Assembly: GCA_012628545.1 (NCBI GenBank)
Contig: GCA_012628545.1_3035.1
DNA length: 64,000 nt
Direction: 5' to 3' (one strand)
Source of the DNA: a phage
Position 1 is the stretch's first letter, and each line of letters opens with the position of its first letter. Shown here piece by piece: positions 45,797-64,000 of this stretch. Under the pieces are notes generated by a model, which saw nothing but the letters and a program-made list of their open reading frames with translations, did no database searches and had not been told where the DNA came from. A program made the position numbers and the translations under genes.

Positions 45797-45807
45797 AACT
45801 TTTTGAA

Positions 45808-45990: not shown

Positions 45991-45998
45991 ATTAATTC

Positions 45999-46469: not shown

Positions 46470-46622
46470 GTGATTTCCTTTTGCCTACTAATGGACCGTC
46501 AGGAATTTTGTTTTCCTGAATGTATTTCTCATTTTCTTCCATCATTTTACTACCGATTTTAAGAAGCAAATCCAATGCTTCATTTGCTTTAGCCTTTGCC
46601 TCTTCTAACGTCATATCTTTGG

Positions 46623-46826
46623 TCATGATTTATCACCATAGATGTCTCTCATCAATTTAAGCGCTGAGCGTTCTAATTTCTTTTCTTTCTCAGCACTAAT
46701 CATTGATTTCATCCATTCTTCTGACTCGTTCTGTATTTCTTTATTTGCCTGTTCAACCCAACCATCATCAATATACATTGAGTTTGGTCTATTGAACCAT
46801 TCAAGCATTTTCTTCAGAACTTTCAT
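46623..46826 (-). CDS. hypothetical protein, 67 aa
   Basis: ORF track. Confidence 0.35.
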
Positions 46827-47298
46827 TTGTTTTACCTAAAACGATAGTATGGACACCGTCAAATTCATGAATTTTTAGCAAATTTGGATTTAAATTATTC
46901 CATAAAGAGATAATAAAATATGATAGCGCACTTTCGTCCGTAATTATAAATTTATTTCCCTTATCAATTTTCCAGTCATATATTGAATCATATGAATAGA
47001 AGGATAACGGTTTATTATTATAGTATGCTTCAGCAACATCAATATAGTTAGATTTAGTAAATGCTTGAATTGCCATAAATGGAGAATTTTGTACAGTTTC
47101 AATAATTCCGATCTTTTTAAGTTTTATTTCAACATCTTCTGGAACTGGCATTGAAATAAAATCTTCTACTAGATACATGTCATTGTCATATCTTTTATCA
47201 ATCATTACTGCTACTGTAATTGGAACATCCTTGACAAACGCCATACTAATACTATTGATAGACATTTCAAACAAAATCGCTTCCATAATTTTCCTCAA
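46801..47298 (-). CDS. hypothetical protein, 165 aa
   Basis: ORF track. Confidence 0.4.
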
Positions 47299-47636
47299 TC
47301 ACAAGATGTAGATGAACAACTAGAATCACAAGAACTTCCACATGAATCGCCCGTCCATACATGAACAGGAACATTGGTGTCATATGAATCAGAACTAGAC
47401 TGTGCATTCTGTGCATTAGATGATGTAGTAGGTACTGACCAGCGCCAAGGATTTTTATAATATTCTTGGGCTTCTTCATAAGTCATAGTAACTGCTTCTA
47501 CTGTTCCATCTCCCATATAAACATATTCAACTACAGTTAAAGGAAGGTAGTCATTTGAAATAGGAACTACACCTTCCCCGGGAGTCGTAGAGAAAAAATC
47601 CGTAAAGAAACTTTTAAACCAATTAAAGATAAACAT
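47295..47636 (-). CDS. hypothetical protein, 113 aa, with Cys/Ser-rich C-terminal tail
   Basis: C-terminus [20 protein letters not shown]. Confidence 0.4.
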
Positions 47637-47842
47637 TACAAAAAGCCTCTTTTGAATTCGACTTGCTTCTCACCATAATCATACCTAATCTCTGCATTAA
47701 ATTCAACAGAACCATCTGCGTACATCATAAATGAATGCACAACAACTTCTGTAGACCATGGCTGTAGTTCATATTTCTTCATTACATGTCGTGAAATGAT
47801 AATATCTAAATCTTCATTTGGTTTAATCCAACGATTTAACAT
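47636..47842 (-). CDS. hypothetical protein, 68 aa
   Basis: ORF downstream of early promoter 47869..47898. Confidence 0.4.
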   Translation of the reverse strand: MLNRWIKPNEDLDIIISRHVMKKYELQPWSTEVVVHSFMMYADGSVEFNAEIRYDYGEKQVEFKRGFL

Positions 47843-47868
47843 AGTGCTCTCCTCTATAAGATAATTCT

Positions 47869-47898
47869 ATTATACCATACTCATTTTGATATGTAAAC
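47869..47898 (-). promoter_or_regulatory. early promoter
   Basis: GTTTAC-N18-TATAAT on minus strand. Confidence 0.55.
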
Positions 47899-47912
47899 CG
47901 GTAAAATGAAAA

Positions 47913-47934
47913 AAGGAACCCCGAAGGATTCCTT
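47913..47934 (-). terminator. intrinsic terminator downstream of soc
   Basis: AAGGAATCC-TTCGGGG-TTCCTT hairpin followed on the minus strand by TTTTTCATTTT. Confidence 0.6.
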
Positions 47935-47939
47935 AAATT

Positions 47940-48197
47940 TTAACCACCAATACCTGGAGTTGGCGTAACAGTCCAAAGACCTTCATTAGCAGTGATCCAT
48001 TCAGTACGCTGATTTTCTTCATATACTGTAGAATATGCTGCTTTTTCAGAAGGGAATGTCTGATAATGAGCACCAGAAATTTTGTGAACATCAGAATAAA
48101 GAGGGAAAGCTACAGAAATTTCTTTACCCTGAATTGTACCACCATCAACTGCTTGGTCAAATGTTTTGATATTAACATAACCGCGAGTACTAGCCAT
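47940..48197 (-). CDS. soc: small outer capsid protein Soc
   Basis: MASTRGYVNIKTF...GKEISVAFPLYSDVHKISGAHYQTFPSEKAAYSTVYEENQRTEWI; late promoter upstream, strong terminator downstream. Confidence 0.85.
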   Translation of the reverse strand: MASTRGYVNIKTFDQAVDGGTIQGKEISVAFPLYSDVHKISGAHYQTFPSEKAAYSTVYEENQRTEWITANEGLWTVTPTPGIGG

Positions 48198-48213
48198 GTA
48201 ATTCTCCTTTTAT

Positions 48214-48423
48214 TTAAATTACATGATTATTTATAATAAATTCTCGCGGAACGTTAAAATACCCGATTTTAGTTAATATAACAACATCACCGTTAATAAT
48301 TACCGGAGAATAATCTTCTGGAGCATTAAATTTCCAATGGGCTCTAATATTATATCCATCAGAACCAAATGCTCGACTAGCCGGTCTCCCGGCTTTTTGC
48401 CATACATAAAAATCAAATTTCAT
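48214..48423 (-). CDS. hypothetical protein, 69 aa
   Basis: ORF between 56 and soc (where T4 carries segF the spacer here holds only small ORFs). Confidence 0.4.
   Translation of the reverse strand: MKFDFYVWQKAGRPASRAFGSDGYNIRAHWKFNAPEDYSPVIINGDVVILTKIGYFNVPREFIINNHVI
48229..48236 (-). promoter_or_regulatory. late promoter (TATAAATA on minus strand) for soc
   Basis: Reverse complement TATAAATA about 30 nt upstream of soc ATG. Confidence 0.7.
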
Positions 48424-48618
48424 TTTGAATGCTCTATAATTAATTTTAAAGCTTCTTCACTGACAAAATTTCGTCAGGACCTTCTTCTATAACCCAATCA
48501 ACCATACGAAGTTGATTAGTTAAGAGCTCACATACGAGCTCCTTGTTATAATCTTTAAATAGCTGGTCAATACGTTTCTTATGGGCTTTCTTAAGCTGAC
48601 GCTTATTTAAACGAGCCA

Positions 48619-49137
48619 TTAATAACCTCGGTCTTGACGAGCGAAGTTTTCAGCATTTTTCAGGTAATAAAGTTTAAAGATTTCTTCAGCTGACATTCCA
48701 AGAGCAATAAATTTATTCATGAAAAAATGAAATTGGTCAATAAGTTCAAATTTAATTTCAAGCTGATCTTCGGGAGATAAATCTTGAATTTTCTTGGATT
48801 GCATTTCAGAATAACGTTTCTTCCAAGGTTTCCATACAGCAGAAGCTTCTTTTTCGCCATTACTCATACCACCGAGAGAAGTATATAGCTCGCGAGTTTC
48901 GTCTGCGATATAATCGTCTTGGTTTCGCAGCCAAGCAAGAACTTCTCCTGCAGTTTCAAGTGAATCAGGATGACGATTTGTTTCTGGTTTATCATTAGCC
49001 AAACGAATCTGTAAATGCCGCTGCATGTCAAGCATAACCTGCAGTGGGTCAATATTGTGCATAATATTCTCAGCATATGCACGATTTGCTTTATCAACAC
49101 CTTCGATCAAATGAGCGCATTCATTAAAGTAAGCCAT
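48619..49137 (-). CDS. 56: dCTP pyrophosphatase gp56 (MazG-like)
   Basis: MAYFNECAHLIEGVDKANRAYAENIMHNIDP...; start at internal Met (172 aa); middle promoter upstream. Confidence 0.8.
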   Translation of the reverse strand: MAYFNECAHLIEGVDKANRAYAENIMHNIDPLQVMLDMQRHLQIRLANDKPETNRHPDSLETAGEVLAWLRNQDDYIADETRELYTSLGGMSNGEKEASAVWKPWKKRYSEMQSKKIQDLSPEDQLEIKFELIDQFHFFMNKFIALGMSAEEIFKLYYLKNAENFARQDRGY

Positions 49138-49171
49138 TATTTTTCCTTTCAATTCATGGGTTAGTAGATTA

Positions 49172-49197
49172 ATTATACAATAAATATATAAAGCAAT
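49172..49197 (-). promoter_or_regulatory. putative MotA-dependent middle promoter for gene 56
   Basis: Minus strand ATTGCTTTA (MotA-box-like) then 11 nt then TATAAT. Confidence 0.5.
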
Positions 49198-49208
49198 AAG
49201 GATGACAT

Positions 49209-49409
49209 ATGGTACAAAAATTAATGGCACTTGTTAATGCCATAAAAGGTAATAAAAAACGTATAGCTTTTACTATTTCTGCTATGGTAGGAATTTTACT
49301 CTGGAACTTTATTCTATCACCTGTTGCAATTGCACATGGTATTAATATTCCAGTAGTTACTCTTGATACATTTGTAGATTTAGCATTTGCTTTAGTTGGG
49401 TTAATTTAA
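49209..49409 (+). CDS. possible small membrane protein, 66 aa (opposite strand to neighbours)
   Basis: AAGGA 7 nt upstream of ATG; two hydrophobic helices; stop codon interlocks with gene 61 stop; could be fortuitous. Confidence 0.25.
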   Translation: MVQKLMALVNAIKGNKKRIAFTISAMVGILLWNFILSPVAIAHGINIPVVTLDTFVDLAFALVGLI

Positions 49410-50434
49410 ATCTTAGCATATTTAGATAACCGCATTTTAGCCATTAACCCCTGGGCAATATTATTTTTCATATATTCCATAATTTGTTCAGGGGTTGCAC
49501 CTTCCTTTCTAATCATATCATTGACGTCTTTTGATTTCCAGGGAGATTTATCCCAAAACATAACCCTTTCTCCTGCATCAACTAATTTAGTCATTCGTTT
49601 GATAGTGTCAGGGTGACGAGGTTCATTATCTAAGACCCACACTCGTCTATCTTTAAATGGAACAACTTCTAGGTCTAATTGACCGCCCGTAATAGCTATA
49701 CCATTTTCAATAAAAAGTGAATCTATAGGTCCTTCTAGAACATATACATCGCCATCTTTAACTCGTTCGACTCCATATATTTTTGTTGCCTCAGGATAAG
49801 CTTTAATGGTGATATATTTTTGAGGAGCATCTTTCTTTAATGCACGTCCTTGAAAAGACTCAGCTTTTCCATTAGCATTATAAATTGGAATAACAAGACG
49901 AGGCTCAGAAATTTCCTTTTTGTATGTTCCCGGTGCTATGCTATTAACTAATTTAGGCCATTCAGTTGTAAACCAAAGATATTTCCATTTATCCTTTGGA
50001 ATACAACGAGCTTTTACATATTTTATAATTGCATGGTCTTCCGCCAGTTTATCTAATCTAACACATGACGGAAGAGATTTAATTATTTTCTTCTCAGGTT
50101 GTTTAGGAAGTTCTTTAGGTTTTTCTACTGGACGACTTTTACCTCTTTCTTTTCTTATTTCAAAGATATACTCACGATATAAATCAGGTTCAAACTCCTT
50201 TAAATATATTCCGATTGGTGCATGATAGTTACAGTTATAACAATGAATATTTCCTTCATTATTATCACCATAATACCATCCACGAGCTTTATTCTGATCG
50301 GTTTTTGAATCTCCACAAACAGGACATCTAAACCGTAATTTAAAAGTTGAACTATTATTTACTTGTGTGAATTTAGGTAAATGAGCTAATGCACGGTATG
50401 CAAACTCATTATCAATCCAAGGTATTGATGACAT
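49406..50434 (-). CDS. 61: DNA primase gp61
   Basis: 342 aa; zinc ribbon CPVCGDS...CYNC and TOPRIM-type region; length equals T4 gp61. Confidence 0.9.
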   Translation of the reverse strand: MSSIPWIDNEFAYRALAHLPKFTQVNNSSTFKLRFRCPVCGDSKTDQNKARGWYYGDNNEGNIHCYNCNYHAPIGIYLKEFEPDLYREYIFEIRKERGKSRPVEKPKELPKQPEKKIIKSLPSCVRLDKLAEDHAIIKYVKARCIPKDKWKYLWFTTEWPKLVNSIAPGTYKKEISEPRLVIPIYNANGKAESFQGRALKKDAPQKYITIKAYPEATKIYGVERVKDGDVYVLEGPIDSLFIENGIAITGGQLDLEVVPFKDRRVWVLDNEPRHPDTIKRMTKLVDAGERVMFWDKSPWKSKDVNDMIRKEGATPEQIMEYMKNNIAQGLMAKMRLSKYAKI

Positions 50435-50602
50435 TTTTACTCTTCTTTTTCTTTAGATTCCTCTTTTTTCTTTTTAGGAATCTGTTCAGGGCCTTTATTT
50501 ACTACAGCGCCCGACGTTGTTCCAGTAGAGATATTTTCAGGATTACCACCTGAATCTCCAGCTACCATATCTTCTTTAATAAATTCTTTATATGTTTTCA
50601 TA

Positions 50603-50959
50603 TTAACCTTTATTCATAAAAGCATTAAAAATTTGGTCATCAATAGAAGGTGCAGCAATATTTTCTGCATCATTTAGCAAATCATTAATTTCATCAGATA
50701 GCATAACACATGTACCTTTATTTCCCGTAATTGTTACTGCGCAATTACGAACGTTTTCTTTATTAAATTTTAGGTTAATATTTTCGTAATGAAAATCCTT
50801 TAATGCTGAATATATTTTTAAAATAAAATTGTCTTTTACTACAATAAACCCAACCTCACTATTAAAACGTGGTTCATGGAAACTGTAATAAACCTTTTCA
50901 TCTATAAAATCGTATGAAATTTTTTCCATTTTTAAATATGAAAATTCAGAACTATACAT
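50603..50959 (-). CDS. hypothetical protein, 118 aa
   Basis: ORF in 61-to-41 spacer. Confidence 0.4.
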   Translation of the reverse strand: MYSSEFSYLKMEKISYDFIDEKVYYSFHEPRFNSEVGFIVVKDNFILKIYSALKDFHYENINLKFNKENVRNCAVTITGNKGTCVMLSDEINDLLNDAENIAAPSIDDQIFNAFMNKG

Positions 50960-50971
50960 ATTAACCTCTAA

Positions 50972-51265
50972 TTACTCACCTACCACTTCAGCGATGATAT
51001 TTTTGTTATTAAAGTTTTTATCGCAATACAGAACATAATTATACTGCATTACACCACCAGACTTAAGTTGTTTTTGCACTTCAGCTTTCATTTCAGGACG
51101 ATCGCGCTCAACGATATTCATAATATCCGCTTCAATTTGAGTTTCAACTTCAGTCTGATCTGCAGTCATAGACCATTCACACAAATCTTTATCATATCCT
51201 GCCATAGCAGGCTGAGCAGCACAAGAAGCCAAAGTAAAAATTGTAGCAAAAATAAATTTTTTCAT
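50972..51265 (-). CDS. sp: secreted periplasmic protein, 97 aa (Spackle-like)
   Basis: Cleavable signal peptide MKKFIFATIFTLASCAAQPAMA; size and position match T4 Sp; assignment positional. Confidence 0.55.
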   Translation of the reverse strand: MKKFIFATIFTLASCAAQPAMAGYDKDLCEWSMTADQTEVETQIEADIMNIVERDRPEMKAEVQKQLKSGGVMQYNYVLYCDKNFNNKNIIAEVVGE

Positions 51266-51325
51266 GATAATCTCCTCAGTAGTTTATGTTTATATAGTAT
51301 CTCAATTTCCAACAAAAGTAAACAG

Positions 51326-51625
51326 CTATTTTAAAACTTCTGCGTAATCACATGTTACAAACTGTTTCTCTAGCTTAACGATCTTACGAAAATACCTTTT
51401 ATACTGACGAATCTGTCGCTTCGTAGGACGTACAGCAAACTTAATAAATTCCACTCGACCAAATGGAGGACTTTCTTCTGCTGGAATATCTAACACCAAT
51501 TCCCACGTATCTGCAATAAGTGCTTTGAATTGAGTATTTTTCCTGACGTTATACGGAGTAGGTTTAAATAAAACAATATGCATATTATCCTCGGCAATCC
51601 ACTTCACATACTTTCTTGTCATCAA
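51326..51625 (-). CDS. hypothetical protein, 99 aa
   Basis: ORF in 61-to-41 spacer. Confidence 0.4.
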   Translation of the reverse strand: MMTRKYVKWIAEDNMHIVLFKPTPYNVRKNTQFKALIADTWELVLDIPAEESPPFGRVEFIKFAVRPTKRQIRQYKRYFRKIVKLEKQFVTCDYAEVLK

Positions 51626-51767
51626 TGAAAGCTTTAACTAATGCTTTATTAACTTCAGCATATTGAGTAGTAGCCCATTGAACGTCATCTTTCATCATTG
51701 TGATTTCTTTAGTAAACATGCTTTCATTCTTAAACCACCCCATAAAAACTACCTTTACCAATTCCAT
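51585..51767 (-). CDS. dmd: Dmd-like antitoxin (60 aa)
   Basis: 60 aa ORF immediately downstream of gene 41, the size and position of T4 Dmd; sequence identity not verified. Confidence 0.5.
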   Translation of the reverse strand: MELVKVVFMGWFKNESMFTKEITMMKDDVQWATTQYAEVNKALVKAFIDDKKVCEVDCRG

Positions 51768-51796
51768 AACAATCTCCTCATTTAACCAACAAGACT

Positions 51797-51826
51797 ACTA
51801 TACCATAGTCTTGTCAGCTTGTAAAC
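51797..51826 (-). promoter_or_regulatory. early promoter upstream of dmd
   Basis: GTTTAC-N18-TATAGT on minus strand, abutting gene 41 stop. Confidence 0.5.
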
Positions 51827-53253
51827 TAAAATTTTAATTCATTTGCCAAAGCATCTAACTGTGCTCGAGTGGATTCATTTCTTTGATAGCGATTCTGTTC
51901 AGCCTGAATCTGTTGTGAACCTGCTACTTCACTCACTTCAGTTGGAGTAGAATCTTGTTCAATTTCTACCCATTTCTGATTTCCCTTTTGAACACCCATC
52001 AAAAACTTATTCCACTTATTCTTATCGCCATATCGTGATTTGATTTGCTTAATGAGTTGTTGTTCAGCAGCTGCTAGCTCCTCGGTTTCAATGACCGCAA
52101 GCATAAAATCAGCTGTTGCTGGAAGACCAGCAGATTCTGCGATATCACTCATGTTAACATCGGAAGAGTCCCAAGCTTGTTTACCAACCTGTGCTGCAGT
52201 CCAAAGAACAGTTTCGGTTTCAACAGCAAGAGCACGCAATTCCTCTGCAATAGCTTTAACAGTTGTGTAACTATTTTCTGAGTAAACTCTGATGCGGCAA
52301 GATTTACAAATACCTAGATAGTCGACAATAATGATTGTTGGAACAAAATTCTTTTTGAGCTTCAATTCATTCAAGAGAGACCTGAATGTGTTAGCATCTG
52401 CCCCACCAGTAGGGTACTGTTTAACAATTAAACGACCGAGAGTAGATTTCTCACGCCATTTTTCCATTTTTCCTTTATACTCAGCGTAAGAAATATGCCC
52501 ATCATCAATGTCATCAAGAGAAACATCGAGCATATTAGCGTCAATACGTTTAGCACAGACTTCTTCTGCCATTTCCATGGAGATATAAAGAACGTTATGT
52601 CCAAGCTGTAAATAATCTGCTGCTAATGAACACAATCCTAATGATTTACCAACGTTAACGCCAGCCATTAAAACGTTCAGTGTTCCAGTTTCAGCTCCGC
52701 CTTTAGTAATTTTGTTTAGAATTCTGAGTTTAAATGGAACCTTACGAGCTTTATTCATATAAGATAGCCAACGTGCTTCGTAGTCATCCATCCAATCATG
52801 ACCAACGTAACTATCAAATGAAATTGATAATGCTTGGCGCATGATGTCAGGAATAGCACCAACATCCGGCATTTTCTTATTTCGTTTTTCCGGAGGAAGC
52901 TCAGCATTAGTTTGAATTTCGATTATTTTAGACGTAGCATTAAACATCGCCCTCTGCTGAACATATTTTTCAGTTTCTTTTACTAACCAGCTGTGGTCTT
53001 CCGGAGAATCAGCTAGTTTTGAAATAAGTGTTTTTACACCAGAATATTCTGTTTCCGTAAATGAACTATTTTCTAATGCAACATTTAACGCATTAATAGA
53101 TGGAACGCTATGATACTCATTGACATGAGATTTAATTAATTTGAATGTATTTTTAGCTGGACCACTTTCAAAATATTCTGAATCCATATATGGCCAAACT
53201 TTTGAAAAATAAGCTTGATCAAATATGAGATGAGAAAGAATAATTTCTACCAC
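51826..53253 (-). CDS. 41: replicative DNA helicase gp41 (DnaB family)
   Basis: 475 aa; Walker A GVNVGKS, DnaB-like C-terminal RecA fold. Confidence 0.95.
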   Translation of the reverse strand: MVEIILSHLIFDQAYFSKVWPYMDSEYFESGPAKNTFKLIKSHVNEYHSVPSINALNVALENSSFTETEYSGVKTLISKLADSPEDHSWLVKETEKYVQQRAMFNATSKIIEIQTNAELPPEKRNKKMPDVGAIPDIMRQALSISFDSYVGHDWMDDYEARWLSYMNKARKVPFKLRILNKITKGGAETGTLNVLMAGVNVGKSLGLCSLAADYLQLGHNVLYISMEMAEEVCAKRIDANMLDVSLDDIDDGHISYAEYKGKMEKWREKSTLGRLIVKQYPTGGADANTFRSLLNELKLKKNFVPTIIIVDYLGICKSCRIRVYSENSYTTVKAIAEELRALAVETETVLWTAAQVGKQAWDSSDVNMSDIAESAGLPATADFMLAVIETEELAAAEQQLIKQIKSRYGDKNKWNKFLMGVQKGNQKWVEIEQDSTPTEVSEVAGSQQIQAEQNRYQRNESTRAQLDALANELKF

Positions 53254-53262
53254 ACTTACTCC

Positions 53263-53625
53263 TTAAAAGAATTTAAACTTTTTCTTTGACCTTTTATTAA
53301 ATGCATCTTGTAGTTGCATTGTAATACATTTTTCTACATGAGGAGCTAACTCAGCTTTTCTTTCTTGGTCAAGAACAGCAAAGTCCATTACGACTTTTCC
53401 ATTAACCCAATCTAATTTTGTCACATACACAATGTGTGTAGAACCATCTTCTAGTTTAATGACAATCTCCTGGATAACATTTTCCATGGCAGATTTAATT
53501 ATCTTAAGAGACTCATTAAAAAGACGTTCTTTTCTTTCTTCTTCCCCCTCCGAAGAGGGGGATTCATCGATAATTTCTAGATCTAAATCTAAATCATCTT
53601 TATTCATTAAATTCTTCCATATCAC
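53263..53625 (-). CDS. 40: gp40 head assembly protein (positional)
   Basis: 120 aa ORF between uvsX and 41; acidic N-terminus; overlaps uvsX 3' end. Confidence 0.5.
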   Translation of the reverse strand: MIWKNLMNKDDLDLDLEIIDESPSSEGEEERKERLFNESLKIIKSAMENVIQEIVIKLEDGSTHIVYVTKLDWVNGKVVMDFAVLDQERKAELAPHVEKCITMQLQDAFNKRSKKKFKFF

Positions 53626-54781
53626 TTAACTGTTCGAGGTCAGTTTCTAAATCAGCTGCCGATTTACTTTTACTTTCTGGGGATTTAAATTTTTCAACTT
53701 TTGAGTTAATTAATTCATCAACTTCAGCTTCAACAATTTCATTACTATCAATAGCACCTAACTGATAAGCACGTTTAATAGCATCTCGGAATGGTTGATG
53801 CTTAAATAAAGGACCCCAGAATGTAGTGCAGTTAGTATCTTTTGCACGCCAAGATTTTTCTTCGCGAATCATCTCGCCGGTTTCTTCATCAAGAAATTCA
53901 CGAGCATACCAACCATTTTTAGGTTTTACTACAAATCCTAATTCTAGAGCCATATCTAACAATCCAGAATAAGGATCGATACCACCATCAAATTTAACAT
54001 CAATAAAGAATTTACTTTTTTCTTTAACGGTACGAGATTTTTCTACATTTAGAACAAATTGATACCCCTGAAGATCAGAACCATCTTTAATCTGGCGCTT
54101 ACCGATAATGAATACAGTATCAGCCGAATACATTACGCCTGTACCACCTGTCATCACGGTTTTACTAAACATTTCAATTGTTTCAATTGTATGGTTAACC
54201 GCAACACATGGAATATTTTTAATGCTAAAATAAGGAGTAACAATACGGAATAATGACTTCAGTGATTTAGCACGAGTCATATCTGCCACAGATTTTTCAT
54301 TCAAGGCATCTTCCGTTTCTTTCTTAGAAGCCATATTACCAATTGAGTCGATGAATACTATAACCTTTTCACCACGCTCAATAGCTTCAAGCTGATTCAC
54401 CATATCAATTTTCAGCTGTTCAACTGATTGAATTGGCGTATGAATTACACGTTCCGGGTCAACTCCCATGGATCGCAAATAAGCTGGAGTAATACCAAAT
54501 TCGCTATCATAAAATAGACAAACCGCGTCAGGATATTTGTTCAAATATGCCGCAACCATAGTCAAAGACATATTTGATTTAAAGTGTTTAGAAGGCCCTG
54601 CGAAAATAGTTAAACCAGACTGCATACCGCCATCAATCGCACCAGAAATAGCAATATTAAGCATTGGAATTTTTGTACGAATTACATCCTTTTCATTAAA
54701 GAATTTAGATGTAGTCAGTTCAGCAGTCATTTTAGAAGTGGAAGCTTTAATCAAACGGGATTTTAAATCTGCAATAGACAT
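53600..54781 (-). CDS. uvsX: UvsX recombinase (RecA/Rad51 family)
   Basis: 393 aa; Walker A GPSKHFKS, RecA-fold motifs. Confidence 0.95.
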   Translation of the reverse strand: MSIADLKSRLIKASTSKMTAELTTSKFFNEKDVIRTKIPMLNIAISGAIDGGMQSGLTIFAGPSKHFKSNMSLTMVAAYLNKYPDAVCLFYDSEFGITPAYLRSMGVDPERVIHTPIQSVEQLKIDMVNQLEAIERGEKVIVFIDSIGNMASKKETEDALNEKSVADMTRAKSLKSLFRIVTPYFSIKNIPCVAVNHTIETIEMFSKTVMTGGTGVMYSADTVFIIGKRQIKDGSDLQGYQFVLNVEKSRTVKEKSKFFIDVKFDGGIDPYSGLLDMALELGFVVKPKNGWYAREFLDEETGEMIREEKSWRAKDTNCTTFWGPLFKHQPFRDAIKRAYQLGAIDSNEIVEAEVDELINSKVEKFKSPESKSKSAADLETDLEQLSDMEEFNE

Positions 54782-54858
54782 TCATTTTTTCCATAGGCAT
54801 CATTATATTTTCCTCACTGGTTAAAGATAGAGTAATTATAACACAATAAATTTAGGCA

Positions 54859-55707
54859 TTAATCAACTGCTATTGGATGAATAGCATTAAACTTATGAAA
54901 TGCTTCTGATTTTTCTTTACGCGAAACACACATGCGAAGAACCTTTAATGGCTCGTCTTCTTCACCCAACGATTTTCGTTTTTCAATATTCGACGTTTTC
55001 CAACGAGCTTGCTCTGGAAACTCTCTATTGATTTGCTCAAGCGCTCTATTATGTTTAGAATTACTACGAATTGAACTACACCCACCAGGAGCTTGCGCTT
55101 TACCTGATACAACCAGATATTTGAACAAGGCCAAATGCGGATAACCTTGATTAATTAAATTGAGAAATGCATACATATCTTCGCACAAATCAATTTTTCC
55201 ATACCCAATTTGTTCTGTCGTAAGTTTTCCAAGGTCATACCATGTATTCGTGAATCCATATGAATTTTCACGATAATTACCCCAAGATGAAGTAATTTTA
55301 AAAATTGGTAGGCGAGCATGACCGTGATAATACCCACAATCCATGGCATCTTCGACGTATTGAATCAATTCATAGAACTGTTCATGAGTCAATTGATTGA
55401 CTTTATCCACACAACGACGGTCATCTCTTTTTCGCATTGAACTCATACGAATAGTAGTATCATCGTCAATCATCCAGATTCGTTGGCCTGCATACATATC
55501 AGTAATTGCTTTACGAGTACCGGCAATTCCGTTTACATCATCAGGAATAGTTATAATTTTAGCTCTAGACCCATAGGCATCATAATAAGCTTTTTCTTCA
55601 TGTTCACGCACTACAATATGGGGTTCATAATCAGTCGGAAACATATCAAGGGCAGAAACTGCCCCGACCCGCTGATAACTTGGAATTACGAATTGAATCA
55701 TTTCCAC
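54859..55707 (-). CDS. putative DNA (hydroxymethylcytosine) glycosyltransferase, GT-A-like, 282 aa
   Basis: N-terminal FVIPSYQR and DxD-type motif IWMIDDDTTI; occupies the locus between uvsX and gene 42 where T4 encodes beta-gt; 10-nt overlap with gene 42. Confidence 0.55.
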   Translation of the reverse strand: MEMIQFVIPSYQRVGAVSALDMFPTDYEPHIVVREHEEKAYYDAYGSRAKIITIPDDVNGIAGTRKAITDMYAGQRIWMIDDDTTIRMSSMRKRDDRRCVDKVNQLTHEQFYELIQYVEDAMDCGYYHGHARLPIFKITSSWGNYRENSYGFTNTWYDLGKLTTEQIGYGKIDLCEDMYAFLNLINQGYPHLALFKYLVVSGKAQAPGGCSSIRSNSKHNRALEQINREFPEQARWKTSNIEKRKSLGEEDEPLKVLRMCVSRKEKSEAFHKFNAIHPIAVD

Positions 55708-56438
55708 TCACCGTTATAATCTTTTTTCACAATATGAGTTTCGCCAGTATTCCACCAATGATCAACCAAGTAAAAATGACGAGAATATACATGAAGACTT
55801 CCAACATTCCATATAATAGAACCTGCTTTATACTGACGAGTTGAATCGCCTGCATTCAAATCAGATACTAATTTATCTAATACGTATTTTTGCCATGCAT
55901 AATCATTACGGAATCCGAAGACCACGTCATTTGAGCGCATGCTTACTACTGCATTGACTTTCTTATCACGAATCAGGTACTGTACTGTATTCGTACACAT
56001 GAAATCTGACATACCATCTTTATTGTAGTCAAATTGCATGGATGGACGAGTATAAATCATGATACCACGTCGAGAATCAGGATTTTGACCAAGTTCAGCT
56101 AAACACATATCATATTGAGCATAGTTATCTTCTGACCAGATAGCCCAACCATAATTCGAGTTAATTTCACCTTTAGAAGATGCTACTTGTTGCCAAATCT
56201 TCGGTGTTTCACCTGGAATATCTTTAACAAACAGACTTTGAGACTTGTACCATTCAAGTTCACGCTGAATGTATTCATCATTAAGAGCGCCAAAAATAAA
56301 GGGTTCATCTGCTACAAATGATGCGCCAATAATTTCAATAGTTTTAACACCAGTTTTATCAACTACGAAATCTTTTTCCTTTAATGCAAGCCCCAAATGA
56401 AGACGGATTTCTTCAACTGTCATAGAGTCACTAATCAT
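55698..56438 (-). CDS. 42: dCMP hydroxymethylase
   Basis: 246 aa; thymidylate-synthase-like fold motifs; length equals T4 gp42. Confidence 0.9.
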   Translation of the reverse strand: MISDSMTVEEIRLHLGLALKEKDFVVDKTGVKTIEIIGASFVADEPFIFGALNDEYIQRELEWYKSQSLFVKDIPGETPKIWQQVASSKGEINSNYGWAIWSEDNYAQYDMCLAELGQNPDSRRGIMIYTRPSMQFDYNKDGMSDFMCTNTVQYLIRDKKVNAVVSMRSNDVVFGFRNDYAWQKYVLDKLVSDLNAGDSTRQYKAGSIIWNVGSLHVYSRHFYLVDHWWNTGETHIVKKDYNGEWK

Positions 56439-56591
56439 TTAAACCTCAATTGATGCATTCATATTTAAATTGTAACAGTAATAAACCCCACCCTATGATA
56501 AGAGTTGGAATCATAGCAGGAACTGTTACGCTATAGTATATACTTATTATAACCATCAAGATTAAAAGCAACACTGTTATAATTTTGCTTT

Positions 56592-56843
56592 TCATTCTTT
56601 CTCTCTGATGATAATTACCTGATTTGGCTGTGCAGACTTTTTAGTTTCACCAGCAATTGACCAAATAAGTGTAATAAACCAACCAATAATTGACCAGTTA
56701 AACAGTAAAGATGTGAAAAAGATTCCTACTGTCGATTTTGACCCACGCATCAAAGCAATAAACCATGGAAGCATGTATATAATAATAGCCAACACACCTG
56801 AAACTAAAACCATAAAAATTGAACCTGCTACTAAAGTTTCCAT
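56592..56843 (-). CDS. imm: Imm immunity (superinfection exclusion) membrane protein
   Basis: 83 aa with two TM helices; position between 43 and 42. Confidence 0.65.
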   Translation of the reverse strand: METLVAGSIFMVLVSGVLAIIIYMLPWFIALMRGSKSTVGIFFTSLLFNWSIIGWFITLIWSIAGETKKSAQPNQVIIIREKE

Positions 56844-56850
56844 ATTTTCC

Positions 56851-57231
56851 TCACTTAGTCAAATTTTTTACGCATGAATTATAAGAATTCACTACATACT
56901 CCATCGGAGCATTTTTACCAGTACGCCATTGGTAATTATTGGCCCAATTAGCCCAAAGCTCGGCGCAGTAGTTTTCAATTTTTTCTTCGCGTGTAATTAC
57001 ATCCGAATTACGATATGCTTGAGCAGATTCATCTGGACGAATAGCTTCGTCAAAATTCGCCTGCATTTGTTCGACTGTTTGCTTTGGAGCTTCTTTATAA
57101 CACTTGACATTAGGATTATAAAATTTGCTTGAACAGTTTACAATTTTTCCTGCATCAGACTGATTTACTACCGGTCCTTGAGCTACACAACCAGTAAGAC
57201 CTAATGCAATAACCAAAATAGCGATTTTCAT
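56851..57231 (-). CDS. predicted lipoprotein, 126 aa
   Basis: Signal peptide plus lipobox LTGC (MKIAILVIALGLTGCVAQG). Confidence 0.5.
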   Translation of the reverse strand: MKIAILVIALGLTGCVAQGPVVNQSDAGKIVNCSSKFYNPNVKCYKEAPKQTVEQMQANFDEAIRPDESAQAYRNSDVITREEKIENYCAELWANWANNYQWRTGKNAPMEYVVNSYNSCVKNLTK

Positions 57232-57241
57232 AATAATTTCC

Positions 57242-57478
57242 TCAAATGCAAGTAGTAATTACTCCAGTAGTGCTTATGCAGGTATTACCCATTTGCACAC
57301 CTAAAGATCCATTTGTATTCACATGAAGATTATCATCAATTTTAACTGATATTTTACCATTAGTGTGAATAACAGTGCTAGATTCAATCACAGGTTGAGT
57401 ATCATTTTCAACACTAACAAATGGAACTGCTGCTAATGCAACTAAACAAACTGCTAAGCATCCCATAACAATTTTCAT
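57242..57478 (-). CDS. secreted/membrane protein, about 78 aa
   Basis: Track ORF includes translated promoter (FFHGTIQLS artefact); start at MKIVMGCLAVCLVALAAVPFVSVE (signal peptide). Confidence 0.45.
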   Translation of the reverse strand: MKIVMGCLAVCLVALAAVPFVSVENDTQPVIESSTVIHTNGKISVKIDDNLHVNTNGSLGVQMGNTCISTTGVITTCI

Positions 57479-57515
57479 TTTATTCTCCAAATCCGTATCA
57501 GTAGTTGATAGTTGT

Positions 57516-57545
57516 ATAGTACCATGGAAGAACATTCTTGTAAAC
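57516..57545 (-). promoter_or_regulatory. early promoter cassette
   Basis: GTTTAC-N18-TACTAT; near-identical to the motA-upstream copy. Confidence 0.6.
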
Positions 57546-57633
57546 AGTTTTGTGAAAATTTTTTTAGGGAATTCTAAAGGTCCAGAATCATCTGTTTTTC
57601 ATAAGTATAGATTTATATTACTTGTATGAAAAA

Positions 57634-57649
57634 GGGACCCGGAGGTCCC
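57634..57649 (-). terminator. intrinsic terminator downstream of gene 43
   Basis: GGGACC-TCCG-GGTCCC followed on the minus strand by TTTTTCAT. Confidence 0.6.
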
Positions 57650-57662
57650 TAGATTTATTCTA

Positions 57663-60359
57663 TCAGCCAAACAGGAAGTCTAACGAAGCTTTTTCTTCAT
57701 AGTCCATACCAGCCGATTCACACATGCCTGCAAGCGGTTTAACAAACGATTTTTGGAACAAAGTTGAGTAGTCAATCCAAGACAGTACGTCAGAACGAAT
57801 TTCTTTTGGAAGTTCTGTACCCGACGGCCAAGCAATGCACTTGTCACCAAATGGATTTCCTTCACGCAATGGAAGAACCATTACTTTATTTCCATCCAAA
57901 ATTGGAGCTACACCCAGACCACTAACAGCTCGACGATAAGTTAGCACCCCACGAATATGGAACGGGCATTTAAATCCTGGCCAACCTTTATCATCATATT
58001 TCGCTATATCGTTCGCAGTTTTTACTTCAGCAATAACTTTATAGTCAAGTTGACGATATTCTTTCTCGAAGTTTTTGTAATATTCTTGGACAGACTCTTC
58101 ACCTTCCTGAAGAATACGACGAATACTTTCTTCGAGAGCTTCTTGAACCGCTTTAGGCGTTGAACTTTGCTGAGTTTCCATACCCATGATTTTTAGATGC
58201 GGTTCAGCAAATCGCTTATCTTCCATATCATAAACGTTCAGAGCATAACGCTTTTTCGCTTTCCAAAATCCACCGACACCCTTTGAACCAAGCGGAGGGC
58301 AAGAAATAGCTTCACGGTCCATATGCATCAGATGCTCGCGGTTATTCATATAATCACATAACTCACGATATGCAACATCAATCATCGGTTCCATCTTTTT
58401 CTTACCAAACTGATTCATGAATTCAACTAAATCATTTTGTTCTTTAAAGCGGTCAAGACCTACTTTTTCAATTACTTTATCTACGCAAACATATACCGAA
58501 TCAGTATCACCTGCTGCGATGAAATCTTCACCATTAGTTCCACACACTTTATTCAGATACTCATTAATTTTACGAGCAATCCACTGAATACCGACTTGAC
58601 CGAAAATTGTGATAGCAGTAGCATTTCGCAAATCATAGTAGCGGAAATGAATATTACCAAGAGCACCATAAAGACTGTTGATAAGAATTTTACGGTTCAG
58701 CTGATTTGTGTTAGCAAGTGTAGCTGCTTTTTCACATTCTTCAATCAAACTATTGAGAACAGATTCAGTATAATTCGATAGTTCATTTAAGAAATCATCA
58801 CTGAACTTAACATATCGTTCAACTTCAGGTTTAGTTGAACAAGACCCTGCGCCTTTCATAATAATCTTTTTAATAGCTTCGGCATTCATTTCTTCAGCGA
58901 ACATTTTCTTTTTCCAATCTTTACGCTGGAAAAATACTTTAGCGATTTCCTTTGGAATGATACCTTCTTGATGCTTATCGTACATCCATCCATTCGGAGA
59001 ACAAGAATATTCATCACTCGGTTTAGGAGCTGTTCCTGCGATATATTCATGAATTGGATGAACTTTAAACTGCCCACGAATAGTCTCAGGACTAATGTTA
59101 ACCTGACGAATAATGCTCGGATACAGAGACGTCAAGTCAAAACTCATAATATATCGACGAGCAATTGGTTTAGGTTCAAACACAAATGCACCCGGAAAAC
59201 TCTGTTTAACATGCGAACCTTGTTGAGGAATAACCTTATGTTCACCTTTCAATGAGTTAAAAATAATAGCATCCCAGGTTTTAATAGGACTCATTACACC
59301 AGAAAAAGGCATTTTAGCGTAATAAGACATACTTAAAACTAGATCGATAAACCCGCGGATTTTATCAATTGCTTGAACTGATTCTACGTCAATGATGTTA
59401 TAACTAATGTATCGTTGATGATTAGTCTCACGAAGTTTATTAATAGGACCGTCGTATGGTAATTTACCTTTTTTGGTTTCATGCTGAGCAACTGATTCCA
59501 AAGAGAATGACGGCAAATTAGTAAATGCGAATTTCTTATACAAATCTAAATAATCAAGAATAGATACGCCATCAATAGAATAAATTTCTTTGCTACCGTA
59601 CATATTTTGGATAAGTTTAGATTTTACTCGACCGATTGGAGAGAAGCGTTTCATACTACGTTCACCGAGAACCATTTTAACGCGATTCATGATATACGGA
59701 ACGTCAAATCCCTCAATATTCCAACCAGTAAAAATAGCAGGTCGTTTCTGTTCCCAAAGATTGATATATTCCATGAGCATATCACGCTCGTTATCGAATG
59801 GCATATAAATTACTCGGTCAAGAATTTCTTGAGGAACTTCATCACCACCTTCACAGTCAAGCTTAGCAGCTAACTTTGCATCCCATTTTGATACTGAACC
59901 GTACATTGAATTCAAAAGGTCGAAAACATAAAAACGGTCATCAATTGAATCGTAATGAGTGATAGCATCAATTTCATATTCTGCTTTCATTGGGTCAGGA
60001 AATTTATCACCAGTAACCTCAATGTCACAGTTAGCTACACGAACAAATTTTCGGTCATAAACAATTTCTGAACCATATGTATCACTGATATAAGCGAGTT
60101 TAAAATCGTTCATACCGAGAGCTTCGAGACCGATGTCTTCCATTCGCTTCATCCAGTCTCGAGCATCTTTCATTGATGGAAATTTTTGAGGAGCGCAATT
60201 TTTACCATAGATGTCTTTGTATTTTGACTCTTCCTTACAATGCCTAAACATAGTTGGAAGATATTCTACTTCACGAGTACGTTCCTTTCCGTTTTCATCA
60301 ATATAACGTTCAACAATGTTATTTCCGACTGTTTCAATAGAGATATAAAATTCTTTCAT
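57663..60359 (-). CDS. 43: DNA polymerase gp43 (family B, with 3'-5' exonuclease)
   Basis: 898 aa; exo motif region FDIEV-type and polymerase motifs (DTDS, KxxxNSxYG); length equals T4 gp43. Confidence 0.95.
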   Translation of the reverse strand: MKEFYISIETVGNNIVERYIDENGKERTREVEYLPTMFRHCKEESKYKDIYGKNCAPQKFPSMKDARDWMKRMEDIGLEALGMNDFKLAYISDTYGSEIVYDRKFVRVANCDIEVTGDKFPDPMKAEYEIDAITHYDSIDDRFYVFDLLNSMYGSVSKWDAKLAAKLDCEGGDEVPQEILDRVIYMPFDNERDMLMEYINLWEQKRPAIFTGWNIEGFDVPYIMNRVKMVLGERSMKRFSPIGRVKSKLIQNMYGSKEIYSIDGVSILDYLDLYKKFAFTNLPSFSLESVAQHETKKGKLPYDGPINKLRETNHQRYISYNIIDVESVQAIDKIRGFIDLVLSMSYYAKMPFSGVMSPIKTWDAIIFNSLKGEHKVIPQQGSHVKQSFPGAFVFEPKPIARRYIMSFDLTSLYPSIIRQVNISPETIRGQFKVHPIHEYIAGTAPKPSDEYSCSPNGWMYDKHQEGIIPKEIAKVFFQRKDWKKKMFAEEMNAEAIKKIIMKGAGSCSTKPEVERYVKFSDDFLNELSNYTESVLNSLIEECEKAATLANTNQLNRKILINSLYGALGNIHFRYYDLRNATAITIFGQVGIQWIARKINEYLNKVCGTNGEDFIAAGDTDSVYVCVDKVIEKVGLDRFKEQNDLVEFMNQFGKKKMEPMIDVAYRELCDYMNNREHLMHMDREAISCPPLGSKGVGGFWKAKKRYALNVYDMEDKRFAEPHLKIMGMETQQSSTPKAVQEALEESIRRILQEGEESVQEYYKNFEKEYRQLDYKVIAEVKTANDIAKYDDKGWPGFKCPFHIRGVLTYRRAVSGLGVAPILDGNKVMVLPLREGNPFGDKCIAWPSGTELPKEIRSDVLSWIDYSTLFQKSFVKPLAGMCESAGMDYEEKASLDFLFG

Positions 60360-60361
60360 AG

Positions 60362-60397
60362 ATATTCCTTAGTTTATAGCCCGAGTTATTAGGCTCT
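60362..60397 (-). promoter_or_regulatory. gene 43 translational operator hairpin
   Basis: Minus strand AGCCTAATAACTCGGGCT hairpin immediately 5' of AAGGAATATCTATG (RBS and start of gene 43). Confidence 0.7.
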
Positions 60398-60419
60398 TGA
60401 TATATTATACTCCAAATAA

Positions 60420-60433
60420 GGGGCCGAAGCCCC
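60420..60433 (-). terminator. hairpin downstream of regA / upstream of gene 43 operator
   Basis: GGGGC-TTCG-GCCCC followed by TTATTT on the minus strand. Confidence 0.5.
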
Positions 60434-60437
60434 TTGC

Positions 60438-60701
60438 TTAAATTAGTACTATTTGTCGGTGAAAAATTGTCATTCCATCTGCATTAATTGACTTAACGAC
60501 TGCAGTAAAGTGTTTTTGTTCTGGGTGAATTAATTTTTGAAATTCTACCTGAAATTTTAGTTGAAGGTTTTCTGGTAAATCGAAAAGTGTTTCTGTTGCA
60601 GAAAGATTATATTTTTCTTTAAGAGACGCCATGTATTCTTGTGGAGTTATAGCAGTCATATTAATTACCAATCGTATATTTAGGAACGAGTTTCCATTCA
60701 T
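60438..60701 (-). CDS. hypothetical ORF, 87 aa (may be shorter; overlaps regA 3' end)
   Basis: ORF in the regA-to-43 spacer; weak. Confidence 0.3.
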   Translation of the reverse strand: MNGNSFLNIRLVINMTAITPQEYMASLKEKYNLSATETLFDLPENLQLKFQVEFQKLIHPEQKHFTAVVKSINADGMTIFHRQIVLI

Positions 60702-61029
60702 GTTTTTGTTTAAAAGAAATAACTCGGAAGTTATTAGTTAAATCTTTCATAAAAGTTCTTTGACCAGGAACGATTTCAATCAATCCCCAATCTTCTAACA
60801 ACCATGCAATCGAATCACGACGAACTTCATCTTCTTCTGTCATTTCAACTTGACGACCATCCATACGAAGCATTTCTTTAAAATGAACGATATAGTATAG
60901 TCCTTTTTTCTGAAGAATATGACAGGACTGATACAGAACTTTATCTTTATTATTAGCAATTCCCATACGAGTCAAAGTTTCTTTTACTTTCAGAAAATCT
61001 TCAGGTTTTTTAAGAGTAATTTCAATCAT
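60661..61029 (-). CDS. regA: RegA translational repressor
   Basis: 122 aa MIEITLKKPEDFLKVKETLTRMGIANNKDKVLYQSCHIL... Confidence 0.85.
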   Translation of the reverse strand: MIEITLKKPEDFLKVKETLTRMGIANNKDKVLYQSCHILQKKGLYYIVHFKEMLRMDGRQVEMTEEDEVRRDSIAWLLEDWGLIEIVPGQRTFMKDLTNNFRVISFKQKHEWKLVPKYTIGN

Positions 61030-61030
61030 T

Positions 61031-61594
61031 TTACCATTCCAATGCTAGTTTTTTGAGTTGTTTCTGTTCTTTTACGTTCTTAGTCACTTCTTTCAAAAAA
61101 TCATCCGTGACTAAACCTTTTAGTTCTTTTAATACTAAAGGAAGTTTTCCATTTTTAGTAAGAATTGATTTATAGTTAATTGCATCATTTGTATTAACTT
61201 GATACCGCTTAGCAATTAACTTAATAATCAATACTTCGGTGGAATCTTCAACTAGTTTTGCCCATTTACCATATCTTTTACCACGAGGAACTGCAGCCAT
61301 TAGATAATTAAAATGAGCTTCATCACTTAAGCCTGATCCAATTAAATTCATAGCATATACAGCTGGCATGCACTCTGGAAATTGTGATAATGCATTTTCA
61401 ACCATGAATTTTGAATAATCTTTTTGAGCAATAGAGCATTTAGTTTTATTATTAATAGCTCCAATTATTTCAAAAAACTCATTTTCAGCTTTTTCTTTAA
61501 AAGAATCAGCAGCGGATTGGACAGCTGTCCAATCTTTTGAATACCAAGCAACTTGATGCTTGTTTAATTGAATATCATCTTCAAATAAGCTCAT
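61031..61594 (-). CDS. 62: clamp loader small subunit gp62
   Basis: [22 protein letters not shown]...; start at internal Met (187 aa), adjacent to gene 44 stop. Confidence 0.85.
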
Positions 61595-61595
61595 A

Positions 61596-62555
61596 TCACT
61601 TCCACTGCATTTCACATGCTAACTGAATGAAAAGATAAGCTAAATGCAATTCAGTATTAGCTGCAATACCATGATACTGATTATTTTCGCCGACAATTTC
61701 GTACATACGAATAATACTCTGTGGAGTTACACGTGAATAGATTTCTTCGGCAAGTTTACCCACGAACCATGAATAATCGGCTGCATATTTTGGTGCTAAA
61801 GCTCTGAGTTGTTTAACATCTTTATTTTTGAGAGACTCAAGAACATCATCAATAGCACCACGATCGTTAGTAACCAGTGATAAAATACCAGCATCCAAAA
61901 CACCTTTAGACGAATAACTATCGAGCTCGCCAATAGTTTTACGAAAATCAGGAAAATTCTTTTTAACCAAAGCTGCTACAACTTTCATATCAGCTATAGC
62001 AATTCCTTCATGCTTACAGATTTCAGTCAATCGACGAATCATCTGCTTCATCATTTCAATTTTATCTTCATCGGTCGGTTGACCGAATGTGATAACTCGG
62101 CAGCGTGACTGAAGCGGTTTAATAATACCATCAATATTGTTAGCAGTAATAATAATACTACAGTTCGAACTATAAGCTTCCATAAAGGAACGAAGATGTC
62201 GCTGAGACTCTGCTAACCCTGAACGGTCAAATTCATCAATAACGATTACTTTTTGACGACCATCAAATGAAGCTGCACTAGCAAAATTAGTTAAAGGACC
62301 ACGAACGAAATCAATTTTACAATCTGACCCATTCACAAACATCATATCAGCATTTACATCATGACACAATGCTTTTGCTACAGTTGTTTTACCTGTTCCT
62401 GGAGAAGGAGAATGAAGAATAATATGTGGAATCTTACCTTTACTTGTAATAGATTTAAAGGTTTCTTTATCAAAGGCGGGAAGAATACATTCATCGATAG
62501 TAGATGGACGATATTTCTGTTCAAGAATGTGTTCTTTTTCATTTACAGTAATCAT
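61596..62555 (-). CDS. 44: clamp loader large subunit gp44 (AAA+)
   Basis: Walker [11 protein letters not shown], Walker [12 protein letters not shown] motif (QSRCRV); start at MITVNEKEH (319 aa). Confidence 0.9.
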
Positions 62556-62590
62556 AATTTCCTCATTCAAGTTTTAGTGTAAATTATAAA

Positions 62591-62602
62591 GGGCCGAAGC
62601 CC
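62591..62602. other. GC hairpin (GGGCCGAAGCCC) between genes 45 and 44
   Basis: Identical 12-nt hairpin core to 31651 and 31883. Confidence 0.45.
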
Positions 62603-62606
62603 TCTA

Positions 62607-63293
62607 TTAAAAATCGTGGGTAGAATCAGCTTCAAGAGCTACTACATAATTCGCATGTTCACCTTCAAATTTAGCAGCACCTTGTTTACCTTTTGCCCAG
62701 AGCAGAAGTTTATAATTTCCTGGTTGCATTTTCATATTTGCCATATTGATAATGAAATTAAATGTATTTTCACCATCATAATCACCAAGAGTCAAAGAAT
62801 ATTTAACACGGGTCAGAGCAGAATCTTCTACTTTATTAAAACCGTTAATTACGATTTTACCTTCTTTTACCGTGATAGCAATTGTATCAATTTGCAGACC
62901 ACGAGATACACGCAACAGTTGTTGAAGGTCTTCAGCTTTAATTTCAGTAACAATAGATGCTACCGGGAATGGAATTGGTTTATTAGGAGCAACTACTGTA
63001 CTCGGATCGGCTGCTGGCCAAAAAATTGTTGAACGAGCATCAGCAATTTTAATATTACCATCTTCTGACTGGGAAATTTCTGCATCATCATTAACTAGAG
63101 ACAGAATACCGAGAAAACCGTTCAAATCGTAAATTGCTACATCAAAATCAATAACGTCAGAAATATTTGCTTCCGCATAAGTTGTACCATTAACTGCGCG
63201 AGTCATAATAAATTGACCGGATTTAAGCATAATTCCAGAGTTAATAGTAGCGAAATTTTTCAAAATATTCAGTGTATCTTTAGACAGTTTCAT
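62607..63293 (-). CDS. 45: sliding clamp gp45
   Basis: 228 aa MKLSKDTLNILKNFATINSGIMLKSGQFIMTRAV... Confidence 0.9.
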   Translation of the reverse strand: MKLSKDTLNILKNFATINSGIMLKSGQFIMTRAVNGTTYAEANISDVIDFDVAIYDLNGFLGILSLVNDDAEISQSEDGNIKIADARSTIFWPAADPSTVVAPNKPIPFPVASIVTEIKAEDLQQLLRVSRGLQIDTIAITVKEGKIVINGFNKVEDSALTRVKYSLTLGDYDGENTFNFIINMANMKMQPGNYKLLLWAKGKQGAAKFEGEHANYVVALEADSTHDF

Positions 63294-63348
63294 GTAATTT
63301 CCTTCAATTCAAATGAGATTTAATTTTATAACTAATTTAATAAAGCAA

Positions 63349-63738
63349 TTAACGATTAAAATCAGCAGCAATTGTTTCCGCAACAATTTGAGCAGCAACA
63401 ATTAGACGTTCATCTGCATTACCGCAATAATCATCTTCAAGGCGTTCACCACATGAAGTCATAATAAATTTAGCACCAGCGTTTAGGGATTCTGTAGTAT
63501 GTTTGCGCATTAGTTCAATCCATTTATTACTTACTTCACGATCGATAGCTTCATAATACGCATGACGAGCAGGTGCAGATTTAATTTTGTTCTGAATAAC
63601 TTCCATTGCGTTATCAGAAAGAGACAAAACCCATGCTCGACGAATTTTATTTTGGTTTTGTGGATTTGATTCAGAACGCACGTGTTTTGGCTGAATATCT
63701 TTTACATCAACAGTATAATTCACAGTAATTTTAGTCAT
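63349..63738 (-). CDS. rpbA: RpbA RNA-polymerase-binding protein
   Basis: 129 aa ORF immediately upstream of gene 45, same size and position as T4 RpbA. Confidence 0.65.
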
Positions 63739-63747
63739 AATACACCT

Positions 63748-63936: not shown

Positions 63937-64000
63937 GTTTTTCCTCCATAGAGATTATACTCTAATAAATTAAAGCATAATCTCTTATAAATTAAACCAT

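Follow-up and report, generated by a model that had tools for sequence, protein, structure and literature searches.

A probable T2/T6-type beta-glucosyl-HMC-alpha-glucosyltransferase in the T4 beta-glucosyltransferase slot of a T4-like phage genome

A TAGT-family glycosyltransferase gene lies between uvsX and gene 42

We identified a minus-strand gene (54859..55701) in a 64,000-nucleotide stretch of phage DNA (hereafter the window) that almost certainly encodes the T2/T6-type beta-glucosyl-HMC-alpha-glucosyltransferase. This enzyme, also known as ba-gt, ggt or g-gt, belongs to the TAGT family (TET-associated glycosyltransferase, Pfam accession PF20691). The predicted product, 280 amino acids from an ATG at 55701 to a TAA stop at 54861..54859, shares 100% identity with QIQ68104 of Citrobacter phage PhiZZ6, a protein annotated as beta-glucosyl-HMC-alpha-glucosyltransferase. 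It is 98.9% identical over its full length to the enzymes of T2 (AP018813, LC348380 and MH751506) and T6 (AP018814). Profile searches matched the protein to PHROG 842, ‘beta-glucosyl-HMC-alpha-glucosyltransferase’ (E 2e-89, profile positions 3-269 of 270), and to Pfam TAGT (39.1 bits against a gathering cut-off of 27.5, E 1e-9, profile positions 2-205 of 205), which is the sole Pfam domain match of the ORF.

The initial annotation, made from the letters of the DNA, had placed a GT-A-like glycosyltransferase in the slot that T4 gives to beta-gt, and the two profile matches, the predicted GT-A fold and synteny bear this out. It had called the enzyme ‘perhaps T2/T6-like’ and left room for a distinct transferase; the 98.9% identity to the proteins of both T2 and T6 settles this in favour of the known enzyme. 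The known T2/T6 enzyme has the same length of 280 amino acids, the same neighbours (gene 42 upstream with an ATGA overlap, uvsX downstream), the same motifs and the same predicted GT-A fold. Nothing in the data contradicts the assignment. Gene identity, fold, conserved motifs, synteny and coupling geometry were established directly in this analysis; activity, product and genetic requirement are taken from the literature.

The gene is widespread. Megablast with the 1.1-kb region matched 575 phage records, the best being PhiZZ6 at 99.8%, and tblastn found the protein in 689 phage records; together with the PHROG 842 match, this puts the gene well outside the range of chance. About 470 of the tblastn matches are at least 95% identical and come from Tequatrovirus phages of Escherichia, Shigella, Yersinia, Salmonella and Citrobacter; about 200 are 60-80% identical and come from phages of Klebsiella and Enterobacter. 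Matching phage records have the same gene 42/uvsX neighbours, and gene 42 adjoins the homologue among the matches listed by tblastn. Cloning of the T2/T6 genes was originally reported by Winkler and Rueger (Nucleic Acids Res, 1993). Most Tequatroviruses encode an alpha-GT together with a TAGT enzyme, and the alpha-GT and beta-GT pair of T4 is a rarity (PMC13216743). All of this is already published, from the enzyme and its fold to its genomic position and product; the gene is ordinary for a T4-like phage and is not a discovery.

The surrounding DNA is a mosaic of the usual Tequatrovirus kind. Window positions 40000..64000 have no identical counterpart in the phage collection, the best match over these 24 kb being vB_Eco_EH2 at 97.4%. 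Identity to PhiZZ6 ranges from 91.8 to 98.0% by block and reaches 99.8% in the ba-gt segment alone.

The start codon and the junction with gene 42

The program-made ORF listing gave a GTG-initiated frame at 54859..55707 on the minus strand, 282 codons long. The in-frame GTG (55705..55707, minus strand) is the source of this 282-aa ORF and is probably not the start codon. A Shine-Dalgarno-like GGTGA element (55712..55708) directly adjoins this GTG with no spacing and stands 6 nt upstream of the ATG at 55701. That ATG shares 4 nt with the TGA stop of gene 42 in an ATGA junction (55698..55701, minus strand), and the annotations of PhiZZ6, T2 and vB_Eco_Some show an identical overlap of 4 nt. The annotated full-length homologues, including those of PhiZZ6, T2 (three records), T6 (AP018814) and vB_Eco_Some, all begin at the equivalent ATG. 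Given the ATGA overlap, the 6-nt spacing and the start annotation of the homologues, the product is most likely the 280-aa protein from 55701 rather than a 282-aa protein from the GTG.

These coordinates amend the initial annotation in two respects. Its 282 amino acids and 10-nt overlap with gene 42 hold only if translation starts at the GTG at 55707; from the ATG, the values are 280 amino acids and 4 nt. The placement of the ORF between uvsX and gene 42 stands, while the statement that its 3' end overlaps the start of gene 42 is reversed: since the ORF is on the minus strand with gene 42 upstream, it is the 5' end of the ORF that overlaps the gene 42 stop. Both reported sequence motifs occur, at residues 4-11 (FVIPSYQR) and 75-81 (IWMIDDD) of the 280-aa protein.

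Predicted GT-A fold and conserved residues

Structure prediction and profile searching, which the initial annotation had put forward as checks, returned a GT-A fold and the TAGT family. An exhaustive HMMER search at E <= 0.001 yielded 2143 clusters at 50% identity, from which 97 diverse representatives, aligned down to 18% identity, were taken. AlphaFold2 run on these 97 sequences gave a confident model (pLDDT 94.1, pTM 0.92), whereas ten close homologues yielded a mediocre one (pLDDT 70). The best structural match in BFVD is the ba-gt of Klebsiella phage PKO111 (TM 0.96), followed by TAGT-domain proteins; a PDB sequence search returned no solved relative, only chance matches at E > 1. By this model, the fold of ba-gt is GT-A (nucleotide-diphospho-sugar transferase) with a DxD-type motif. 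A published model of the T6 enzyme likewise has a GT-A fold and places it as sister to GT2 (PMC13216743).

Five residues alone are invariant among the 97 representatives (R11, D80, D175, G186 and G207), and a further eight are at least 90% conserved (I6, P7, R63, D79, D81, L180, G206 and R212). The window allele carries the family consensus at every invariant position. The conserved residues fall on three elements. The first is the IPSYxR strand-loop within FVIPSYQR (F4-R11; 55669..55692, minus strand), which includes strand E3-7 of the model and comes first in the Rossmann-like nucleotide-binding half. The second is D79-D80-D81 of IWMIDDD (55459..55467, minus strand), a DxD-type motif that follows strand E74-78 in the model, as in GT-A enzymes. 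The third is E174-D175, an ‘ED’ motif. If GT2 enzymes are a guide, the three would serve as nucleotide-binding, metal/diphosphate-binding and catalytic-base elements, and DDD79-81 is predicted to bind metal and the diphosphate of the UDP-sugar.

The likeness to cellular enzymes is distant. GT2-type GT-A enzymes of cells, such as BcsA, TarP, TarS and chondroitin polymerase, are only 8-15% identical to ba-gt. Unlike them, ba-gt has neither a membrane nor a polymerase domain, and its acceptor is a sugar on duplex DNA.

A shared slot with unrelated T4 and RB69 transferases

At the homologous position, T4 carries the 351-aa beta-gt (Pfam accession PF09198) and segA. [quoted passage not shown] T4 beta-gt resembles ba-gt in its slot between gene 42 and uvsX, in its UDP-glucose donor, in acting on hmC-containing DNA and in forming a beta linkage. 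The two differ in acceptor, which is the hydroxymethyl group of hmC for T4 beta-gt and the glucose of alpha-glucosyl-hmC for ba-gt. RB69 likewise has a DNA-base glycosyltransferase, gp46:47, in the equivalent slot adjoining the gene 42 homologue. The RB69/Mosigvirus arabinosyltransferases (gp46:47 and gp3) modify another base, 5-hydroxycytosine, with another sugar.

This common position raises the alternative that the window gene is a divergent homologue of T4 beta-gt or of an RB69-type arabinosyltransferase, kept at an ancestral location. The shared slot between uvsX and gene 42 (or its homologue), which T4 beta-gt and RB69 gp46:47 also occupy, is the one point in its favour, and we give this reading practically no weight. 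BLASTP of ba-gt against T4 beta-gt gave a best E of 1.7 over 10 residues, and nothing significant against alpha-gt; hhalign of the 97-member family alignment against T4 beta-gt returned a probability of 0.16%. The full-length alignment to T4 beta-gt that the initial annotation had named as evidence against its own reading is therefore not found by either method. The comparison with RB69 arabinosyltransferase, which it had also suggested, likewise revealed no homology, hhalign giving 0.12% for gp3 (ORF003c) and 0.20% for gp47. Homology to T4 beta-gt, T4 alpha-gt, RB69 gp3 or RB69 gp47 is thus refuted by BLASTP and hhalign (<=0.2% for beta-gt, gp3 and gp47). The folds differ as well, the modelled GT-A fold of ba-gt standing against the GT-B folds of the T4 enzymes.

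A published table lists structures of sucrose-phosphate synthase and phosphatidylinositol mannosyltransferase as the best matches of the RB69 candidates (PMC13326640). The exchange of a GT-B beta-gt for a GT-A enzyme at this position is real and has been described before (PMC13216743, PMC13390438). The T2/T6-type assignment agrees with the modelled fold, the profile matches and the neighbours of the window gene. The two kinds of structure matched by the RB69 candidates have GT-B folds.

Predicted modification of the phage DNA

The high identity to the T2/T6 enzymes points to beta-1,6-glucosyl-alpha-glucosyl hmC as the probable product, and the pathway may be sketched as follows. Gene 42 would make hm-dCMP, and replication would incorporate hmC into the DNA. 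A phage alpha-glucosyltransferase, encoded outside the window, would place an alpha-linked glucose on hmC in DNA. The GT-A enzyme ba-gt would then take a second glucose from host UDP-glucose and join it to the first through a beta-1,6 linkage, forming gentiobiosyl-hmC. It would presumably employ a divalent metal held by DDD79-81 and a carboxylate base in E174-D175. The T2/T6 PF20691 protein is reported to add a glucosyl group onto alpha-glucosylated cytosine to yield 5-gentiobiosyl-methylcytosine (PMC13216743). HPLC/MS of Tequatroviruses that encode alpha-GT and a TAGT protein syntenic with T4 beta-GT detected alpha-5-gentiobiosylmethyl-dC and no beta-glucosyl form; these gentiobiosyl phages include vB_Eco_Some and vB_Eco_EH2 (PMC13390438). 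T6 deleted for g-gt no longer has the second glucose, and its DNA contains about 75% alpha-glucosyl-5hmC (PMC13160076).

The initial annotation had anticipated a DNA sugar decoration different from that of T4, and the predicted gentiobiosyl hmC, as in T2 and T6, agrees. We predict T6-like DNA in which roughly one quarter to one third of hmC is bare, the rest is mostly gentiobiosyl-hmC and beta-glucosyl-hmC is absent; the exact ratios are inferred. The extent of the second glucosylation varies widely among phages with near-identical enzymes, so the ratio in this phage is not precisely predictable. Reported modification patterns include 1:2:2 versus about two-thirds (PMC13390438).

An alpha-gt gene was sought in the window by tblastn and none was found (E > 0.9). 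In PhiZZ6, alpha-gt lies 11.6 kb past the start of ba-gt. Colinearity between the window and PhiZZ6 extends to position 64000, the last of the window, and would put alpha-gt about 3.3 kb further on. Judging from its relatives, this genome probably has an alpha-gt. Neither a second TAGT copy (HMM search of all six frames) nor a beta-gt was found in the window.

A TAGT transferase could in principle use a different donor or acceptor (bare hmC, beta-glucosyl-hmC or another sugar) and so produce a decoration distinct from that of T2 and T6. The family is large and diverse, with its 2143 clusters and identities down to 18%, and TAGT homologues may accompany alpha-GT or beta-GT or stand alone, so that specificities across the wider family probably vary (PMC13216743). 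For the window protein we consider such a change of specificity very improbable. It differs from the T2 and T6 enzymes at three positions each, has the consensus residue at all invariant positions, and is 98.6% identical by tblastn to the enzyme of vB_Eco_Some, whose DNA carries gentiobiosyl-hmC (PMC13390438); the window also lacks a beta-gt.

The type of decoration that ba-gt signals, T6-like gentiobiosyl-hmC and not T4-like alpha and beta monoglucosyl-hmC, affects sensitivity to defences that read glucosyl-hmC and is therefore useful for annotation and host-range prediction. GmrSD-family enzymes cut gentiobiosyl-hmC DNA as well as monoglucosylated DNA, and Brig1 is specific for alpha-glucosyl-hmC (PMC13216743). 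The BapA deglucosylase is unable to remove glucose from gentiobiosyl-hmC, and the substrate of the Brig3 glycosylase is the bare hmC that remains in T2 and T6 DNA (PMC13160076).

Allelic variation in T2 and T6 records

Public T2 and T6 records carry several substitutions and lesions in this gene. The T2 allele differs from the window allele at three positions, R11H, H106R and P251S. R11H is present in all three public T2 records (L004:4283-5125(-), L007:3295-4137(-) and L008:3286-4128(-)), at the codon equivalent to window positions 55669..55671, while R11 is kept in the window, T6, PhiZZ6 and vB_Eco_Some. P251 is conserved in at least 90% of ten close homologues (alignment A1). Among IMG/VR contigs, a degenerate DNA pattern with His at codon 11 had 0 matches and the pattern with Arg had 5.

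The T6 allele differs from that of the window by Y40N, D55G and one further lesion that depends on the record. In AP018814 (L002, 3007-3846, plus strand), one GAT is gone from the GATGATGAT run, which shortens DDD to DD. In MH550421 (L006, 3138-3980, minus strand), Q10 is an amber codon (CAG to TAG), and the annotated CDS begins at a later ATG and encodes 261 aa. The window allele has the family consensus at all the conserved positions among those that differ in T2 or T6. Both T6 lesions are probable loss-of-function changes, and either may reflect a mutation in the stock or an error of sequencing. If they are real, laboratory stocks may not all have the textbook modification.

Reported gentiobiosyl-hmC levels are about 5% in T2 DNA and about 72% in T6. 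R11H could explain this difference, and the allele of T2 may be hypomorphic. One tentative possibility, which we put at somewhat below even, is that allelic variation at the ba-gt locus sets the ratio of mono- to di-glucosylation in T-even DNA. By the same token, the window gene might be inactive or only weakly active and the DNA mainly alpha-monoglucosylated, as in T2, given that probably defective alleles exist (R11H in low-gentiobiosyl T2, the Q10 amber in T6 MH550421 and the Asp loss in T6 AP018814). We regard this as very improbable, since the window allele is intact, retaining R11, DDD, D175 and all other invariant residues, and is the same as the PhiZZ6 allele. An active T2/T6-type enzyme with T6-like DNA is the reading that we prefer.

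Gene order and expression

The genes around ba-gt follow the T4-type order, with transcription running 43 > imm > 42 > ORF > uvsX. On the minus strand, gene 43 (57663..60359), imm.1 (56851..57231), imm (56592..56843), a small ORF between imm and gene 42 (56446..56595) and gene 42 itself (55698..56438) lie upstream of ba-gt; uvsX (53600..54781), gene 40 (53263..53625) and gene 41 (51826..53253) lie downstream. Gene 42 encodes dCMP hydroxymethylase, the source of the hmC precursor, and is so annotated at homologous positions in relatives.

The ATGA junction indicates that ba-gt is translationally coupled to gene 42, with which it would be transcribed. The initial suggestion of co-expression with gene 42 is thus plausible through ATGA coupling, although it had been drawn from a reversed orientation. 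Upstream of gene 42 and ba-gt, an element resembling T4 middle promoters was read by eye and its coordinates were checked (56546..56570, minus strand). It consists of TGCTT (56570..56566), a 12-nt spacer and TATAAT (56551..56546), and its MotA-box-like heptamer is TGCTTTT. T4 has an identical sequence upstream of gene 42. Judging from the known architecture of T4 middle promoters, gene 42 and ba-gt may be expressed from this element. A strict regular expression for this class of promoter (TGCTTNA, 10-14 nt spacer, TANNNT) had no match.

Generic scans were no better than shuffled sequence, both for sigma-70 promoters (13 promoter-like sites, 14.2 expected) and for terminators (4 terminator-like sites, 1.7 expected, sd 1.6). 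A hairpin-like site within the ORF (55665..55649) has a weak T tract and was taken as chance.

Several small features of the neighbourhood were also noted. The distance from the uvsX start to the ba-gt stop is just 77 nt (54782..54858) and holds no seg gene; in T4, the GIY-YIG homing endonuclease gene segA lies between uvsX and beta-gt. This spacer carries TGTTATAAT, an extended -10-like sequence upstream of uvsX.

On the other side of gene 42, the small ORF at 56446..56595 (minus strand) is a hydrophobic frame of 49 codons that occupies the 153-nt ‘42-imm intercistronic region’. The middle-promoter-like element of gene 42 falls in the same stretch. The start codon of the ORF overlaps the stop of imm in an ATGA junction, and the ORF matches PHROG 3610 (unknown function) at E 2e-26. 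The frame is uninterrupted in T4, T2, T6 and PhiZZ6. Between T4 and the window, 8 codon changes are nonsynonymous and 5 synonymous; those nonsynonymous changes that could be read off (A/T, V/I, A/L and L/I) are conservative. The ORF is annotated in vB_Eco_Some and unannotated in the T4, T2, T6 and PhiZZ6 records examined.

Finally, imm.1 and gene 43 flank an ORF of 97 aa (57242..57535, minus strand). Its counterpart is shorter in PhiZZ6 (237 nt) and in T2 (252 nt, ‘RB51ORF048’), and T4 and T6 have no annotated gene at this position, which is thus a variable small-gene slot.
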